From: Mycobacterium sp.
GTDB lineage: Bacteria; Actinomycetota; Actinomycetes; Mycobacteriales; Mycobacteriaceae
DNA: 64,000 nt
Direction: 5' to 3'
Assembly: GCA_018882965.1 (NCBI GenBank)
Contig: VEQY01000016.1
Coordinates: 308 to 64,307, forward strand
Within the stretch, counting starts at the first letter, position 1, and each line of letters opens with the position of its first letter. The position numbers and the translations under genes were made by a program. Below are positions 3,289 to 10,375 of this stretch, one piece after another. The notes under the pieces are model-generated. The model was not told the DNA's origin, ran no database searches, and saw only the letters and a list, made by a program, of their open reading frames with translations.

Positions 3289-6200
3289 ATGAAAGCGTCG
3301 GTGTATGTGGGCCGGGTCGGGGGGTTGGCCCTGGCACTGGGCATCGGGGTCGGGGTGTCGATCGCATGCGGGCCACCGGTGGGGGCGGCCCCGGGCCAGG
3401 GATCACCAGATCCCTCCGCCACAGCCGAACCCAGCCCGGCGCGCGGTGGCGCGACAACGCAGCGCACCCGACAATCCCGCGGCACACCCGTCGCATCAGA
3501 AGCCCCCGGTCCTGACAATGCCCAGCGCGCCGCAGTGTCGACCCCCCGGGAGTTGCCCTCGGCGGCGCCGGGCAACGACTCCCCACCGCGTCCCTCCGCG
3601 GCGGTGAGCCTCAAGGTGCCGGCGGTGCCGGTAGCAGCGGGCGGAGTGTCGCGGCGACCCGGTGATGCGGTGGCGGCCGTTGCCCTGGCGCCCGCGCCCC
3701 CGGCGAACCCGCCCAGCGCCACAGCGACACCAGCCGCGCTAACGCCCGCAGCGCCCGCGCCAGATGCGTCCGCCGCGCGACCTGCTCCCGCCAGTGACTT
3801 GCTCACCATGGCGTCGGCGCTACTGCTCGGCGGTGGGCCGGCGTCGCCGGTGGAGTCCCCGACAGCCTGGGCAGCGGTGGCTGCCGCCCGCTCGCGCGAG
3901 GACCAGGGACCGCTCGGAGCGGCTGCGACGCCCGCGCTGAACCCGCGGATCACGGCGACCTACACCGTCGGAGTCGAACCGCGATTGGTGGTGGCCGACC
4001 CCCGCGGCCGGTGGGTCTACACCATCAACGAAAGGGGCGAGAAAGGAACGGACCGGGAAATCTATGCGTCCATCTCGGTCTTGGACACCGTGACCAAGAC
4101 GGTCACGACGTACAGCATGATCCCGTCAGGCTGCGGATGCGACGGCCGCTTCACCGACGATGTCGCGATCACTCCCGACGGCACCCTGTACCTCTTCGGA
4201 CTGGAGGAAGAGCGCGCCCTAGTCGATGTCGGCAACTACGTCGTCGGCGCTACGGCGCGGGAATCGGGATTCCAATGGCGGGAGATCCCATCGGAAGATG
4301 CGAGTGCGCTGGGCTCCCAGTACGGCGGCTTCGCCATCAAGTCCGTCGCCGGAGCTGTGAGTTTCGACGCCAAGACCGTGATAACCGGACTGATCGCGAC
4401 CAAGGCTGTCCCAAGAACGCTGTCCTACAAGGAGGTCGATGAGGACCGGGGACTCCAGCCCTTCTACGACCCCCGTACCGAGACGCTCAAGGAGTACGAC
4501 ACCCAGGCGTTCCTCGGCTACATCGATACCGCACTCGTTGCCGGGTTACCCCTCGGTGAGGGCAGCGGCGGAACCGTTAGCGACGGTGACGAGGATGAAG
4601 GTGCAGTGCCAACACGCCCGCAGGGCAGCATCCCCAAGACGATAATCCCCGGCGCCGAAGGTCAGCGGGTGGGACCGATACTGAATTGGGCGAACACCAA
4701 GGGCTGGGAGGACATCGGACTAACCGTCAACGATGTCGAGCTGGTCGGGCCGGCATCGTCGGGGATCGCCTGGCTGGTGGGAACCAAGGATCCCCGGAAA
4801 GCGAGGGGCCGAGCCGCTGCGGTGCCCTGGGTGGCGTCGGTGATCACCTCCACGGGTGCGACCGCCTATGTCAAACTGCCCAGTGACTTCACCGGCTCCG
4901 GCGTCAGACTTAAGGAACTTTCTCTCGCGAAAACGCCGAGTGGATCGAGGATCTTCGTCGGGGGTTCGAAAATTGCCGTGATCGACGGTGCCTCGCGTGC
5001 TCTGATCACCACGATCGACCTGCTGCCCGACACGCCTTTTAACAACTCCAACGGCGCATCCGTCATCGATATGGCGGTCAGCCCTGACGGCAAATACCTA
5101 TTCGCGCTCAACAGCGATAGCGAACCCGCACGCAAGCTGTTCTTCGTCATCGACATCGCGACCAATGCAGTGCTGAAAACCTTGACTCTCGACACGCTCA
5201 ACGGCACGGGATACGCCTCTGATATGGCTGTCAGTACCGACGGCAAGCGTGTGTACATCACCACCGACAGCTCCAGTGGCGCACCCTATAGCGCGAGCAT
5301 CCTCAGCGAGATCGACCTCTATGCTCCGGCACCGACCGGCACCGCGACCGTAGGCACGCCCGAGGTCAGCACCGGCGTGGTCGCCGGCAGGGTAACGACT
5401 TCCGGTCTGGGTGGGTCGATGACCTATACCCCGACCACGCCGGCCAAGGGGACGGTCAGCATCACTAACGCCGGGGCATTCACCTTTACCCCGAGTGCGG
5501 CGGCGATGCATGCGGCCGCCCGCAACGGGGCCGCGACAGCGGAGAAGACCGACACGTTCACCGTGACCGTCCGCGACAGCCAGGGCTCGCGGGTCGACGT
5601 GCCCGTGACAGTCACCATCGTGCCCCGCAACACGCCCCCGGCCGACGTCCGCGCCAGCGTCGGTTCCCCCGATACCTCCACCGGGGTGGTCACCGGAACG
5701 GTGAGCGCCACCGACGCCGACCGCGACAGCCTGACCTTCTCGGTGCCCGCAACCACCGCCAGGGGCGGAATCACCATCAACGCTGCCACCGGCGCGTTCA
5801 CCTACACGCCCACCCTGGCCGCGCGGCAGAACGCCGGCAAGCCCGGCGCTACCGCCGCGGACAAGTCCGACAGCTTCACCGTCACGGTGTCTGATGGCTA
5901 CGGCGGCTCAAGATCGACGGCTGTCGCGGTGGCGATCAGCCCGGTCGCGCCCCCTGCGAACTCCCCGCCCGTGCCCGGTACGCCCACAACGACCACCAAT
6001 ACCTCCACCGGAGTGGTGAGCGGCAAGGTCAACGCCACCGACCCCAACGGCGACTCTGTGACCTACACCGCAACGACGATCTCTACCGCCAAAGGCAGAG
6101 TGACCGTCACCGGTGCGGGGACCTTTACCTACACGCCCACCGCCGCCGCGCGCCATGCGGCGGCGCGAAGCGGTGCCACCTCGGCCGACAAAGCCGATAC

Positions 6201-6594
6201 CTTCACCGTCACCGCCTCCGACGGGCGTGGCGCAAGTGCTGGCATCCCGGTCACGGTGACCATAAGCCCGAAGAACACCGCGCCCAGCGGAGTACGGGCC
6301 ACTGTCGGGACACCGAACACCACGACCGGGGTCGTCACCGGACGGGTCAGCGCCACCGACGCGGACAGAGACCCGCTGACCTTTTCCGCCCCGGCCACCA
6401 CGAGCAAGGGGGCGATCAGCATCACCGCTTCGAGCGGGGCGTTCACCTACACGCCCACGCTCGCCGCGCGGCAAAACGCCGGCCGGCCCGGGGCAGGTAC
6501 AGCCGATCGCTCCGATAGCTTCATCGTGACGGTCGCCGACGGCTACGGCGGCAGCGCCCGAGTCACGGTGTCGGTGACGATCCGGCCGGCCTGA
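3289..6594 (+). CDS. Large secreted/surface protein: signal-like N-terminus, Ala/Pro linker, YncE/YVTN-type beta-propeller, four C-terminal VCBS/Ig-like (cadherin-like) repeats; putative adhesin
   Basis: GGGGAG RBS before ATG 3289; N-terminus [15 protein letters not shown]; blade motifs (VAITPDG, MAVSPDGKYLF, MAVSTDGKRVY); four about 105-aa repeats with TGVV.G.V.ATD, GAFTYTP, DSFTVTV.DG. Confidence 0.85.
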   Translation: MKASVYVGRVGGLALALGIGVGVSIACGPPVGAAPGQGSPDPSATAEPSPARGGATTQRTRQSRGTPVASEAPGPDNAQRAAVSTPRELPSAAPGNDSPPRPSAAVSLKVPAVPVAAGGVSRRPGDAVAAVALAPAPPANPPSATATPAALTPAAPAPDASAARPAPASDLLTMASALLLGGGPASPVESPTAWAAVAAARSREDQGPLGAAATPALNPRITATYTVGVEPRLVVADPRGRWVYTINERGEKGTDREIYASISVLDTVTKTVTTYSMIPSGCGCDGRFTDDVAITPDGTLYLFGLEEERALVDVGNYVVGATARESGFQWREIPSEDASALGSQYGGFAIKSVAGAVSFDAKTVITGLIATKAVPRTLSYKEVDEDRGLQPFYDPRTETLKEYDTQAFLGYIDTALVAGLPLGEGSGGTVSDGDEDEGAVPTRPQGSIPKTIIPGAEGQRVGPILNWANTKGWEDIGLTVNDVELVGPASSGIAWLVGTKDPRKARGRAAAVPWVASVITSTGATAYVKLPSDFTGSGVRLKELSLAKTPSGSRIFVGGSKIAVIDGASRALITTIDLLPDTPFNNSNGASVIDMAVSPDGKYLFALNSDSEPARKLFFVIDIATNAVLKTLTLDTLNGTGYASDMAVSTDGKRVYITTDSSSGAPYSASILSEIDLYAPAPTGTATVGTPEVSTGVVAGRVTTSGLGGSMTYTPTTPAKGTVSITNAGAFTFTPSAAAMHAAARNGAATAEKTDTFTVTVRDSQGSRVDVPVTVTIVPRNTPPADVRASVGSPDTSTGVVTGTVSATDADRDSLTFSVPATTARGGITINAATGAFTYTPTLAARQNAGKPGATAADKSDSFTVTVSDGYGGSRSTAVAVAISPVAPPANSPPVPGTPTTTTNTSTGVVSGKVNATDPNGDSVTYTATTISTAKGRVTVTGAGTFTYTPTAAARHAAARSGATSADKADTFTVTASDGRGASAGIPVTVTISPKNTAPSGVRATVGTPNTTTGVVTGRVSATDADRDPLTFSAPATTSKGAISITASSGAFTYTPTLAARQNAGRPGAGTADRSDSFIVTVADGYGGSARVTVSVTIRPA

Positions 6595-6622
6595 CCGCGG
6601 GCGAACGCCGCGGATTTGGTCA

Positions 6623-6680
6623 CCGAGATTGCGCCCAGATCACCCAAACGGGCGATTTCGTGATCTGAGCGCAATCTCGG
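6623..6680 (+). repeat. REP-like imperfect palindrome, copy 3, between the convergent adhesin gene and tRNA-Leu; possible bidirectional terminator
   Basis: 12-bp + 1 mismatch + 8-bp stem with 16-nt loop CCAAACGGGCGATTTC. Confidence 0.9.
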
Positions 6681-6706
6681 CGCGTGACCGGGTGTCGAAA
6701 ACCCCG

Positions 6707-6780
6707 TGCCCCCAGTCGGACTCGAACCGACACTGGGCGGATTTTAAGTCCGCTGCCTCTGCCAATTGGGCTATGGGGGC
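6707..6780 (-). tRNA. tRNA-Leu(UAA), 74 nt, short variable loop, CCA not encoded
   Basis: Cloverleaf: acceptor GCCCCCA/TGGGGGC, anticodon arm GCGGA-CTTAAAA-TCCGC, T arm GTCGG-TTCGAGT-CCGAC. Confidence 0.96.
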
Positions 6781-6804
6781 GCGCCGCCGGCTGCCGGTCG
6801 CGAA

Positions 6805-8061
6805 TCAGCGGACCGGGCTGTCGCGTAACAGGCCGCGGGCCTCGAAGGTCTTCGCGCCGGGAACACGCACGCTGGCGACGATGTCGATCATGTTCTCACC
6901 GCGCTCGGTGTTGTAGAGCTCCTGGGACTGCAAGCGGCGGCGCGCGATCCACTCGTCGGTCTTGCCCTTGACCATCGGCTCGGCGGGCACGATCTCCACG
7001 CTGGTCACGCGGACCTCGGGTTCGACGTAGGCGGAGTGGGTCAGGTGCTCGATCATGTTCGACTTCAACTCCACCAGGTACACCGGCACCTGCTGCTCGG
7101 CCAGCGCGATCGCGATCTTGCGGGCCACGATGAATGCACCCTCCTTGGCGACCAGCGGCATCTGCGCTCCGCTGAAGGGCATCATCCCCTCGGGGTACAC
7201 GGCGATGCTGACGATGTCACGTTTGGCCAGGAACTCCTTCACCCTGTCCACGCTCTGGCCGATCGGATTGAGGCTGGCGTCGTATTCGTCGACGTAGACC
7301 ACGTCGCCCGGTGACTCCGGCGGCGGGATGGGGTAGACACCCCGGCGCGCCATCACGATGTGGTGGGCGGTGCCGAGCTTGTGCGCCGAGCGGTTGGCGA
7401 TCGACCCGTCATACAGCGACGCGTCGTGGTTGCCGACGACCACCATCACCCGGCGCGGGCTGCCGGCCATCGCGGAGTTGGCCTCGTCGAAACCGGCGAA
7501 GGTCAGGTCGTCGGTGCGGAAGAAGTTGGCCGGATCCAGCCAGCGCGGCCAGTGCGACACCGACCGGTGCAGCCCGACCAGAGCCACCACCAGAAACGCC
7601 GTCTTGACCGGCTTGCGGGCGGCGAGCAGCATTTCGGGCACCGCCACCACCGGCGAGAGCGGGGCGGCGTCGTCGCGGCGGGCCAGGCTGGCGTTGATCT
7701 TGTGGATGGAGTTGCGCAGCGCACCTGAGCGCAGCGCCTTGATCGCACCCGGCCGCGACTGCAGCGCGATCAGTTTGCGCATCGCGGTCAGCGTCTGCTG
7801 GGCGGTCATCGCGATGTTGGCTTCCAGCCGGGTCAGCCGCAGCACCGACTCGGCGTTCTTGGCCGCGCTCTGGTCGATGAACAGCCCCCGGTAGAGGTCG
7901 GCCAGTTCCTGTATCGCCGCGCCGACGATGTCGCGGGAGGTCTCGATCTCGACGACGGCCCGCGGGTCGGCCCCCAGCAGGGACACCGCGGTGGCGACCC
8001 GGTCGTTGTAGAGGTCCTCGAAGCGGCGCAGTTTCGGCAGGTACGTGAGGTCTTCGGCCAT
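6805..8061 (-). CDS. Divergent PlsC/lysophospholipid acyltransferase-superfamily protein with a helical N-terminal domain
   Basis: 418-aa ORF from ATG 8061; motifs VVVGNHDASLYD and AVYPEGM resemble NHxSxxD and FPEG. Confidence 0.6.
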   Translation of the reverse strand: MAEDLTYLPKLRRFEDLYNDRVATAVSLLGADPRAVVEIETSRDIVGAAIQELADLYRGLFIDQSAAKNAESVLRLTRLEANIAMTAQQTLTAMRKLIALQSRPGAIKALRSGALRNSIHKINASLARRDDAAPLSPVVAVPEMLLAARKPVKTAFLVVALVGLHRSVSHWPRWLDPANFFRTDDLTFAGFDEANSAMAGSPRRVMVVVGNHDASLYDGSIANRSAHKLGTAHHIVMARRGVYPIPPPESPGDVVYVDEYDASLNPIGQSVDRVKEFLAKRDIVSIAVYPEGMMPFSGAQMPLVAKEGAFIVARKIAIALAEQQVPVYLVELKSNMIEHLTHSAYVEPEVRVTSVEIVPAEPMVKGKTDEWIARRRLQSQELYNTERGENMIDIVASVRVPGAKTFEARGLLRDSPVR

Positions 8062-8210
8062 CAGCGTCCCCCTGCCTTTCACCGAGTCCGCCGGTCGCGG
8101 AGCGTCCTCAGACTACCCGCGCCGACAACGGCGATAGCCGGTGTAGCGGCCCTGCGGCCACTATCGTGAGGGGGTCCGACCGGCTGAGTCGGACCAAGGA
8201 GGTGAGCAAG

Positions 8211-8321
8211 ATGCGTGTCCCCGAGACCAAGCGCACCGGCGGCTGTACCTGCCGCTGCGGCGCCTGCAAGAGCCAGGCACACTGCCGCAACATCGGCAGC
8301 GGCTGCCGGATCAAGCTCTAG
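8211..8321 (+). CDS. 36-aa Cys-rich basic small protein MRVPETKRTGGCTCRCGACKSQAHCRNIGSGCRIKL (absent from the ORF track)
   Basis: AAGGAGGTGA Shine-Dalgarno at 8196-8205, 5 nt before ATG; 32 of 35 sense codons after ATG end in G/C; TATCGT -10-like at 8162-8167; stop shares CTAG with the ppx2 stop. Confidence 0.8.
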   Translation: MRVPETKRTGGCTCRCGACKSQAHCRNIGSGCRIKL

Positions 8322-9262
8322 CGGATCGCGAGCGCGATCCCGTCGAGGATGTCGTGCTCGCTGACCACGAGCTCGCTGATCCCCGCCCGCTCCCCCAGCG
8401 CCGCGGCCAGTTCCTCGACGATGATCGCCCCGCCGGCGATGACGTCGACCCTGCCCTCGTGCATGGGGCCCAGCGCAGCACGCTGCGCGCGGGTCATGGC
8501 GATCAACTCCGCGCACACCGCGCGCAGGTCGGCGAACCCCACCCGAGACAGGTGAATCGCCGCGGGATCGTAGGTCGGCAGACCGTGGGCCAGCGCGGCG
8601 ATCGTGGTGAACGTTCCCGCCAGACCGACCCACGTGCGCGCCTGCTGCACCGGCACCACCCGAAGCGCCTCGGCCAGACGCTCCCGCACCACCTGCCGGG
8701 CATCGGCCACCTCCGCGGCCGCCGGCGGGTCGCTATGCAGGCAGCGCTCGGTCATCCGCACGCACCCGATGTCGGCGGAGAAACTGGCCTGCACGCCTCC
8801 GGCGGCCTCGCCCAGCACCACCTCGGTTGATCCGCCACCGAGGTCGACGACGACGAAAGGTCCTGCGGCGGAGTCCAACTCGCCGACCGCACCGTTGAAC
8901 GACAGCTCCGCCTCCTCGGCACCGGTGATCACCTCGGCGACCGCCCCCGGCACCACCTCACCGAGGACGGTGGCGGTCATCGCGAAGAAGTCGTCGCGGT
9001 TGGCCGCATCGCGGGTGGCCGACGTCGCCACCATCCGCACCCGGTCCACCCCGTAGCCGCGCAGCAATCCGGCATAGTCCACCAGCGCGGCGCGGGTGCG
9101 CTGCAGCGCGCCGGCACTGAAGCTGCCGGTGGCGTCCACGCCCTCGCCGAGGCGCACGATGCGCATCTCGCGGTGCAGATCGCTCAGCGTCGCGCCGTGG
9201 CGCTCGGCGACGAGCAACCGGATCGAGTTGGTGCCGCAGTCGATGGCCGCGACCCGGGTCAT
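8318..9262 (-). CDS. ppx2: Ppx/GppA family exopolyphosphatase (Rv1026 homolog)
   Basis: MTRVAAIDCGTNSIRLL, ATSATRDA, VDLGGGSTE, EHDILDG; last gene of the eno operon. Confidence 0.95.
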   Translation of the reverse strand: MTRVAAIDCGTNSIRLLVAERHGATLSDLHREMRIVRLGEGVDATGSFSAGALQRTRAALVDYAGLLRGYGVDRVRMVATSATRDAANRDDFFAMTATVLGEVVPGAVAEVITGAEEAELSFNGAVGELDSAAGPFVVVDLGGGSTEVVLGEAAGGVQASFSADIGCVRMTERCLHSDPPAAAEVADARQVVRERLAEALRVVPVQQARTWVGLAGTFTTIAALAHGLPTYDPAAIHLSRVGFADLRAVCAELIAMTRAQRAALGPMHEGRVDVIAGGAIIVEELAAALGERAGISELVVSEHDILDGIALAIR

Positions 9263-9750
9263 GTCCACTGCCCCGCAGCGAGGATCCCGGCCATCGCGGG
9301 GTCGGCGGCGACCCGGGCCAGCGCCTCGTCGCCGAGCGGGTTGACCCCCCGGCCCTTGGCCAGCGCGTGGGCCATGAGCACGTGCAGGCACTTCACCCGC
9401 TCGGGCATGCCGCCGGCCGAAGTGGTGGTGCCCAGGGGTGCGATCGCATCACGCTCGGCCAGGTAGGACTCGTGGGCGCGGCGGTAGGCGGCGGCGAGAT
9501 CGGGATCGGCGCGCAGCCGGGCGTTCATCGCCTCCATCGCCCCCTCGGATTCGAGCCTGCTGGCCGCGGCGGTCAGCGCGGGATGGGTCAGGTAGTACAG
9601 CGTCGGAAACGGAGTGCCGTCGGGCAGCCGCGGTGCGGTGGTGACCACGGCGGGCTCCCCGTTGGGGCAGCGGTAGGCGATCGCCAGCACCCCGCGCGGT
9701 ACCCGCCCCAACTGCCGTGCCACCACGTCGAGGTCGGCCGGGTCAACCAC
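9259..9750 (-). CDS. DUF501 family protein (Rv1025 homolog)
   Basis: PRLPDGTPFPTLYYLTHP and GGMPERVKCLH motifs; synteny. Confidence 0.92.
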   Translation of the reverse strand: MVDPADLDVVARQLGRVPRGVLAIAYRCPNGEPAVVTTAPRLPDGTPFPTLYYLTHPALTAAASRLESEGAMEAMNARLRADPDLAAAYRRAHESYLAERDAIAPLGTTTSAGGMPERVKCLHVLMAHALAKGRGVNPLGDEALARVAADPAMAGILAAGQWT

Positions 9751-10375
9751 CGGGCGGCGGCGGGGCCGGCGGCAGCGGCGGGGCCGGCGGGGGTTCGGCC
9801 GGCGGCCCGTGCGGGGTGTCGGCGATGGTGTGCCACAGCGCGGTGTACCAGGGGTCACCGCTGCGCGCGACGCCGCCCTGCGGCCCGCCGTCGACCGCCG
9901 CCGCCGACGACGGCGGCAGCTGCACCTGATAGGGAATGTCGCCGGGTTTGACGAAGCCCAGCCGCTCGCGGGCCTGCGCGGCGATGTAGACCGGGTCGGC
10001 GAGTTTGGCCTTCTGGCCCTCCAGGTCGGCGATCTGCTCGCGCAGCGCAGCCTCGCTGGCGGCCAGCTGGCGCATCTCGGTGCGCTGGGCGAAGTAGGTG
10101 CGCACCGGCCCGGCGATGGTCAGGGTCAGCACACACACCACCGCGGCGAGAATGGCCGCGCGTCGGGCGGTGAACCCCAGCCGCTCCTCGCTCTGCTGGG
10201 CGGCCGACGCGGAGATGGCGCGACGGATCGGTTCGGTGATGCCGCGCCGGACCGACTCGGCCCGCGCCCGCAGGCCCCGGCCGCCGGGCTCCTTGGCGCC
10301 CGCCCGCGCCGGCCGCGACCGGCGTGAGGTGGCTGCCGGCCGGGAGGCCGGCGTGCGCCGCTTGCCGTCTGCCAC
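9743..10375 (-). CDS. ftsB: Septum formation initiator FtsB/DivIC (Rv1024 homolog)
   Basis: Basic N-terminus, single TM helix, coiled coil, AQARERLGFVKPGD; follows eno. Confidence 0.9.
   Translation of the reverse strand: MADGKRRTPASRPAATSRRSRPARAGAKEPGGRGLRARAESVRRGITEPIRRAISASAAQQSEERLGFTARRAAILAAVVCVLTLTIAGPVRTYFAQRTEMRQLAASEAALREQIADLEGQKAKLADPVYIAAQARERLGFVKPGDIPYQVQLPPSSAAAVDGGPQGGVARSGDPWYTALWHTIADTPHGPPAEPPPAPPLPPAPPPPGG

Follow-up and report, generated by a model that had tools for sequence, protein, structure and literature searches.

The metal cluster of the prokaryotic metallothionein SmtA is Zn4Cys9His2, and the copper metallothionein (Cu-MT) of Neurospora crassa is a fungal protein of 25 residues. 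In mycobacteria, the metallothionein MymT, of about 53 aa, is found in pathogenic species and is repressed by RicR. In Mycobacterium tuberculosis it binds Cu(I) and belongs to the RicR regulon (PMC3944814). A further kind of short Cys-rich ORF known in mycobacteria is the polycysteine uORF attenuator, which is leaderless, contains runs of Cys codons and lies directly upstream of cysteine-related operons (PMC4633059; bioRxiv 10.1101/834739).

We compared with these systems a microprotein of 36 aa, MRVPETKRTGGCTCRCGACKSQAHCRNIGSGCRIKL, encoded at 8211-8321 on the + strand of the analysed stretch of 64,000 nt (hereafter, the window), with the ATG at 8211-8213 and the stop codon TAG at 8319-8321. 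Like MymT, it appears to be a small cytoplasmic mycobacterial protein rich in Cys and His, with C-x-C motifs, present in only part of the genus and overlooked by annotation for a long time. Unlike MymT, as this is described, its family has a length of 31-55 aa, another fixed Cys6His spacing and a distribution in environmental and fast-growing lineages; moreover, no palindrome similar to the RicR-type TACCC-N5-GGGTA was seen by eye in 8083-8210. With SmtA/BmtA (PF02069) it shares the short length of a prokaryotic protein, the mixed Cys/His ligands and a defined ligand pattern, but the family HMM gave no match with E up to 10, size and spacing differ, six Cys and one invariant His stand against the Cys9His2 of SmtA, and no gene for a SmtB/ArsR-type regulator is near. 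The likeness to the N. crassa Cu-MT (very short, with repeated C-x-C and C-x2-C and with Gly, Ser and Asn in between) is one of composition only, and the microprotein differs from it by its invariant His and Asn.

The window was read from 7900 to 8600, and the -10 element, the hairpin, the Shine-Dalgarno (SD) sequence, the ATG, the stop codon and the CTAG overlap, all described below, were found in the positions that a previous sequence-only reading had given for them. The ligand residues of the peptide are C12, C14, C16, C19, H24, C25 and C32, in the pattern C-x-C-x-C-x2-C-x4-H-C-x6-C, together with 8 Lys/Arg and a single acidic residue, a Glu. The GC3 of the frame is 32/35 (codons 2-36), and as no stretch of it is hydrophobic, the peptide has no signal peptide; on ligand pattern, charged residues, GC3 and signal peptide our reading agrees with the previous one. 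For the other two frames the GC3 counts are 18 and 24. A longer form of 51 aa, starting from a GTG at 8166, was rejected, as this GTG overlaps the -10 element and the start is not conserved.

The microprotein ORF is a genuine conserved gene; it evolves under purifying selection and is confined to the genus. A profile search in 401 Mycobacterium/Mycolicibacterium genomes gave homologues in 160 of them (120 of the 312 of high quality), 31 to 55 aa in length and with E-values per genome, within this one genus, from 1e-10 to 1e-21. The six-frame search of 40 relatives returned full-length matches of the same genus, free of stop codons, with E down to 7e-17, and the scan of one genome per species gave 96 matches, all from Mycobacterium/Mycolicibacterium isolates or from MAGs labelled Mycobacterium, Mycobacteriaceae or Actinomycetota. 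Named carriers include M. sphagni, M. rhodesiae, M. psychrotolerans, M. litorale, M. komossense, M. vinylchloridicum and M. pinniadriaticum. When the search was extended to 401 genomes of the whole class, the microprotein was found in 8, every one of this genus, and no homologue was found in the 387 genomes of 173 other actinomycete genera. In large cluster sets there were 15 matches among 1.84 billion cluster representatives and 52 among 5.8 billion clusters. The gene is retained in streamlined genomes of 2.6-3.8 Mb.

The sequence-only reading had proposed to look at the conservation of the Cys residues and at dN/dS, and both speak for the peptide. In 50 distinct aligned sequences G11, C12, C14, C16, A18, C19, H24, C25, N27 and C32 are invariant, hence all six Cys are, and the Cys codons, all but the last, alternate between TGT and TGC while the residue itself stays constant. 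Mean pS was 0.47 versus a mean pN of 0.14, and the median dN/dS was 0.20 (1784 pairs). No frameshifts were found among the homologues examined. The start ATG is conserved and, in many genomes, it lies two codons past an in-frame stop, by which the start is fixed in those genomes.

The homologues fall into three main subfamilies, with the signatures KSQAHC-x-NIGSGC, DGGHHCHNIGSGC and D(S/G)GHHCGNPPNC, respectively. The window peptide is of the KSQAHC-x-NIGSGC type, which is cationic and occurs in small-genome MAGs from freshwater or wastewater. The cationic character claimed by the sequence-only reading holds for this subfamily (net charge +7) but not for the others, which are His-rich, with about +2 and up to four extra His (e.g. 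CHCHC, GGHHCH, KHTGG). A paralogous group, whose N-terminus is longer, occupies a separate locus (L112, L113, L119; G169, G382, G241). The paralogue sequences read MGKDDHEISEK...GCRCHC... or MPRRDRPHRDRD...ACGCHC..., and their locus lies between a gene for a PhoD-like phosphodiesterase or a LysR regulator and a convergent D-2-hydroxyacid dehydrogenase gene, adjoining the gene of a peptide/nickel-type ABC binding protein. Finally, one acidic metagenomic protein of 106 aa (P0010) has two tandem copies of the C-x-C-x-C-x2-C-x4-H-C...C-F-V-K module, from which we consider the module an autonomous, repeatable mini-domain.

Searches in databases of families and structures agreed with the claim that the peptide is new. 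In Pfam and NCBIfam there was no match for the window peptide (E up to 1) and no significant one for 50 relatives; with the Pfam threshold raised to E up to 10, for the window protein and 50 members, only chance matches to FeoB_associated and hEGF appeared, and no metallothionein family. The profile search of PDB gave only non-significant matches to a B-box and to NDUCA1. AlphaFold2, run on a 50-row alignment, returned a pLDDT of 55, no secondary structure and no confident fold, and Foldseek against PDB gave 0 matches. The names of the homologues in the databases are either 'hypothetical' or spurious ('EGF-like', 'calcium-binding', 'diguanylate cyclase'). Literature searches by motif, by M. 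smegmatis metallothionein, by DUF4383 and by the neighbours of MSMEG_5408 found nothing on a Cys6His family, nor did the supplementary data published with M. smegmatis ribosome profiling and TSS mapping contain a match to the microprotein. On the evidence of these searches, the Cys6His microprotein belongs to no described family.

Our main reading, to which we assign a probability of roughly 55%, is that the gene would encode a cytoplasmic metal-thiolate microprotein of the Cys6His type, metallothionein-like, which buffers metal or hands it over. The chemistry that is strictly conserved consists of six thiols, one imidazole and one Asn within about 21 residues. The CxCxC, CxxC and HC arrangements, the extra His of the other subfamilies and the lack of a self-supporting predicted fold are all pointers to metal binding, and a new Cys-rich, probably metal-binding peptide, as the sequence-only reading had already proposed, is still the best hypothesis. 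According to this model, the core of about 25 residues, G-C-x-C-x-C-[NG]-A-C-x4-H-C-x-N-x4-C-x-[VI]-K, which has no hydrophobic core, would hold its shape in the reducing cytoplasm only by wrapping the six thiolates and the imidazole round metal ions, and the simplest site predicted would be a two-metal Zn(II) cluster or a small Cu(I)-thiolate one. Against this model, cysteine makes up 17% of the peptide, which is below the share in classical metallothioneins.

The alternative that best withstands the data is a structural zinc (or Fe-S) mini-finger, in which the metal is only a scaffold and the protein binds the ribosome, RNA polymerase, nucleic acid or the DUF4383 protein; we regard it as rather unlikely. 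The invariant residues that are not ligands (G11, A18 and N27) would also suit a rigid, partner-binding zinc finger, and they are conserved together with a GSG or PPN turn and a basic tail; the recurrence of the module as a repeated domain and the strongly cationic window subfamily go in the same direction, but charge varies across the subfamilies as reported above. The local spacing C-x2-C-D-x3-H-x2-N resembles that of plant CONSTANS B-boxes, with E of 3-9 that are not significant, whereas the other ligands and the length differ from those of B-box or zinc-knuckle fingers, and there is neither a fold model nor a structural match, Foldseek included. As to a partner, in 49 of 78 related loci the microprotein gene is followed, on its own strand, by a gene for a DUF4383 membrane protein, which in some of them lies only 42-51 nt downstream with no strong hairpin in between. 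Against this, a strong terminator precedes the DUF4383 gene in most loci, and the window genome, 95% complete, yielded no DUF4383 gene. Persistence of the microprotein gene there and in streamlined genomes argues for an independent function.

The only fixed element of the neighbourhood is ppx2 (Ppx/GppA exopolyphosphatase), identified from its ORF and family matches at 8318-9391 on the - strand, whose true start is probably near 9262. It is the convergent neighbour of the microprotein gene and the last gene of eno-ftsB-DUF501-ppx2, and in nearly every locus the microprotein gene is convergent to the end of this operon. The interval between the two is variable, from an overlap of the stop codons to about 4 kb, and contains a permease gene in some loci; it behaves as a variable insertion site. 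The upstream neighbours also vary (kdpBCDE or kdpDE, alcohol dehydrogenase, P450, acetyl-CoA synthetase). No metal regulator or transporter consistently adjoins the gene and no metal-sensor operator was recognised in the loci examined, nor did we find a conserved functional partner beyond ppx2 and the frequent DUF4383 gene. The position of ppx2 as the sole fixed neighbour could be a historical accident.

In the window, a 425-aa ORF at 6805-8082 (-) is divergent from the microprotein gene; it has no Pfam match, shows by eye an acyltransferase-like HX4D motif (GNHDAS) and a PEG motif, and was found elsewhere only in the nearest relative (L023). A tRNA-Leu (anticodon taa) lies at 6706-6780 (-).

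The signals for expression are conserved with the gene, as regards the promoter element, the 5′ hairpin and the SD that the sequence-only reading had described in the window. The -10 hexamer TATCGT (8162-8167, + strand), recognised by reading the sequence and by comparison with the upstream regions of the homologues, is 43 nt before the ATG and is homologous to a TATNGT present in 64 of the 77 distinct upstream regions; in 20 of these a good xTGACx -35 lies a further 17-19 nt upstream, with 18 as the usual distance. The hexamer lies within a longer block, (A/C)CTATNGT(G/T), which is found upstream of most homologues, while the background frequency of [AC]CTATNGT is 0.005 per 130 nt. A simple sigma-70 scan did not call any promoter in the window, because the -35 of the window is poor. 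The SD block of the window, AAGGAGGTGA, is at 8196-8205 (+), with its core GGAGG at 8198-8202, 8 nt before the ATG, and 73 of the 77 distinct leaders have a GGAG or GAGG no more than 20 nt from the start.

Between the two elements, reading and folding of the sequence gave a 5′-proximal stem-loop at 8173-8195 (+), with a perfect stem of 8 bp and a loop of 7 nt: the arms are GGTCCGAC (8173-8180) and GTCGGACC (8188-8195), the loop is CGGCTGA, and the SD block abuts it directly. The hairpin starts about at the expected transcription start, 6-8 nt past the -10. Its energy is -15 kcal/mol (z = -1.5), a value that alone is not significant, since 17 of 200 shuffled sequences fold equally well. However, a stem of at least 6 bp is present in the same place in 25 of the 37 distinct short leaders versus 8.5 ± 2.4 (max 16) after shuffling, a count that is inflated by the relatedness of the leaders. 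We counted hairpins per sequence against shuffles; RNAalifold on the MAFFT alignment of the leaders, which is out of register, did not recover the hairpin. The stems differ from leader to leader (GGTCCGAC/GTCGGACC, GCCCGCG/CGTGGGC, GCCCAC/GTGGGC, GGCCCG/CGGGCC, GACCC/GGGTC and TCGTCGC/GCGGCGA), and as they vary in sequence at one and the same position, it is the structure that is conserved and not the sequence. A REP element was considered for the window hairpin and rejected, its sequence being unique in the genome. In the search of Rfam with the window region 6000-10000 (E up to 1), the leader had no match and only the tRNA, placed at 6707-6780, was credible; two further matches, to Plastid-ycf2 and mir-1295, fall at 6622-6780 and thus not in the leader, do not reach the threshold and are apparently due to chance. 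Rfam likewise gave nothing for three loci whose leaders are long.

In our model, transcription would start from the conserved sigma-A-type -10 TATCGT and the mRNA would open with the stable stem-loop, which, as a putative 5′-terminal stabiliser, would keep the mRNA stable while leaving the near-consensus SD free, so that the microprotein would be highly expressed. The stabilising role is suggested because in M. smegmatis structure of the 5′ UTR outside the ribosome-binding region correlates with a longer mRNA half-life (PMC11532794).

In other subfamilies (L086-L100, L105-L123) an AT-rich element, GAnGTnGTCATATGTTGAT(ATG), follows right after the -10 (AACTATTGT) and holds a CATAT-N4-ATATG palindrome. 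We searched five genomes for this element: in three of them the exact copy of TCATATGTTGAT was present only at the microprotein gene, and in the other two a copy with one mismatch was found at the microprotein gene; no regulon emerged from these five genomes. The element (CATATGTTGATATG) could serve as the operator of a dedicated repressor. In the long leaders, of about 90 nt (L086-L100, L105-L114), a conserved AACUCUGCUCC block pairs with the AGAGGAGUU SD region in MFE folds, and this predicted pairing between AACUCUGCUCC and the SD suggests a translational riboregulator.

At the 3′ side, a strong GC-rich terminator hairpin, often with a U tract, is downstream of most homologues. The conserved promoter and terminator signals of its own make the microprotein unit monocistronic, and in the window, too, 8211-8321 (+) would be transcribed on its own, as a monocistronic gene whose 36-residue product is predicted to be cytoplasmic. 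Here the stop overlaps that of ppx2 and no space is left for a terminator between the genes: CTAG at 8318-8321, as read from the sequence, is common to the two convergent stops, the TAG of the microprotein on the + strand and that of ppx2, the complement of 8318-8320, on the - strand. The same overlap recurs in the nearest relative (L023). Past the microprotein stop, inside the 3′ coding end of ppx2, the + strand RNA of 8314-8373 folds into a long stem-loop of -31.2 kcal/mol (z -2.6; 3 of 200 shuffled sequences fold equally well), which has no U tract; we take it as a putative terminator or 3′ stabiliser, and it could end both convergent transcripts. This stem-loop arises from the sequence coding for the conserved C-terminus of ppx2.

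An explanation of another kind would make the peptide incidental, the transcript being either a cysteine-sensing leader or attenuator acting in cis or an antisense RNA against the 3′ end of ppx2. We judge it very improbable. For the antisense variant, which the sequence-only reading had entertained as a coupling to the eno-ppx2 operon, there is the fact that the window transcript must enter ppx2, the stops overlapping; but this overlap is limited to compact genomes, in most homologues a strong terminator stands between the two genes, and the coupling is thus not conserved: it is a local outcome of genome compaction. For the attenuator variant, the microprotein gene resembles the polycysteine uORFs cited above in being an unannotated short Cys-rich ORF conserved in mycobacteria, and relatives do have a gene downstream on the same strand, after a terminator-like hairpin. 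We rejected the polycysteine leaderless attenuator all the same, in agreement with the sequence-only reading, on the grounds of a leader with hairpin and strong SD, spaced rather than consecutive Cys codons, a conserved peptide and, usually, a terminator of its own. One argument of that reading, i.e. that no gene lies downstream on the strand, is valid for the compact clade of the window but not in general, given the DUF4383 gene in the 49 of 78 loci. The downstream gene differs by genome (DUF4383, permease, lgt2), and in the window the ORF persists without any. The invariance of G11, A18, H24 and N27, the dN/dS of 0.2 and the conservation of start, stop and length further argue against an incidental peptide.

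Still more remote is a precursor of a modified or secreted Cys-rich peptide, either a RiPP or a defensin-like antimicrobial. The product is indeed small and cationic with six Cys, and in one genome group a radical SAM gene is about 1.5 kb downstream on the same strand. This is the only radical SAM near a homologue (L137), and it is a lipid-type Tes/TrsS match beside an Lgt paralogue, with no maturase cluster; a precursor matured by a radical SAM protein of the SCIFF/ranthipeptide type was rejected, as no adjacent maturase of the radical SAM/SPASM kind is present in the window or in the neighbour clusters annotated among the 78 loci analysed, and the cluster of L137 itself was seen neither in the window nor in these loci. 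The interval in question (L137:7180-11595) encodes the lgt paralogue, a 204-aa protein, the radical SAM protein, a protein of 86 aa and a DUF1942 (MPT63-like) protein; the radical SAM protein is related to the tetraether lipid synthase Tes and to TrsS and has a zinc ribbon at its N-terminus. Moreover, the peptide has no division into leader and core, no signal peptide and no transporter or protease neighbour, and is conserved over its whole length. A secreted, disulfide-rich antimicrobial peptide is unlikely, as the product lacks a hydrophobic segment and no export or maturation genes are conserved nearby. Lastly, a spurious ORF in GC-rich intergenic DNA, for which one could invoke the very short length, the rare annotation and the antisense ORFs that are likewise open across it, can practically be dismissed in view of the amino-acid conservation with synonymous turnover in 160 genomes and of a high GC3 in this frame only.

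A more specific form of the metal-thiolate reading can be proposed tentatively, with somewhat less confidence than an even chance: the microproteins would be an undescribed, genus-specific, metal-binding family, the counterpart of MymT in environmental and fast-growing mycobacteria, holding a small Zn(II) or Cu(I) cluster by means of a fixed, tandem-capable Cys6His module; their expression would depend on a promoter and a leader of their own, both highly conserved and fixed in place where the eno-ppx2 operon ends. To our knowledge, non-pathogenic mycobacteria lack MymT.

Small proteins are systematically missed in mycobacterial annotation, and this microprotein is a case in point: about 40% of the species sampled in the genus have it and even the most streamlined genomes keep it, but there is neither a family model nor a structure for it. 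If it binds metal, it would represent a new bacterial family, either metallothionein-like or of zinc microdomains, and would offer a way into the study of how non-pathogenic mycobacteria buffer metal. Whatever its role, the strict Cys6His module and the conserved expression cassette make it an easy experimental target in cultured Mycolicibacterium.
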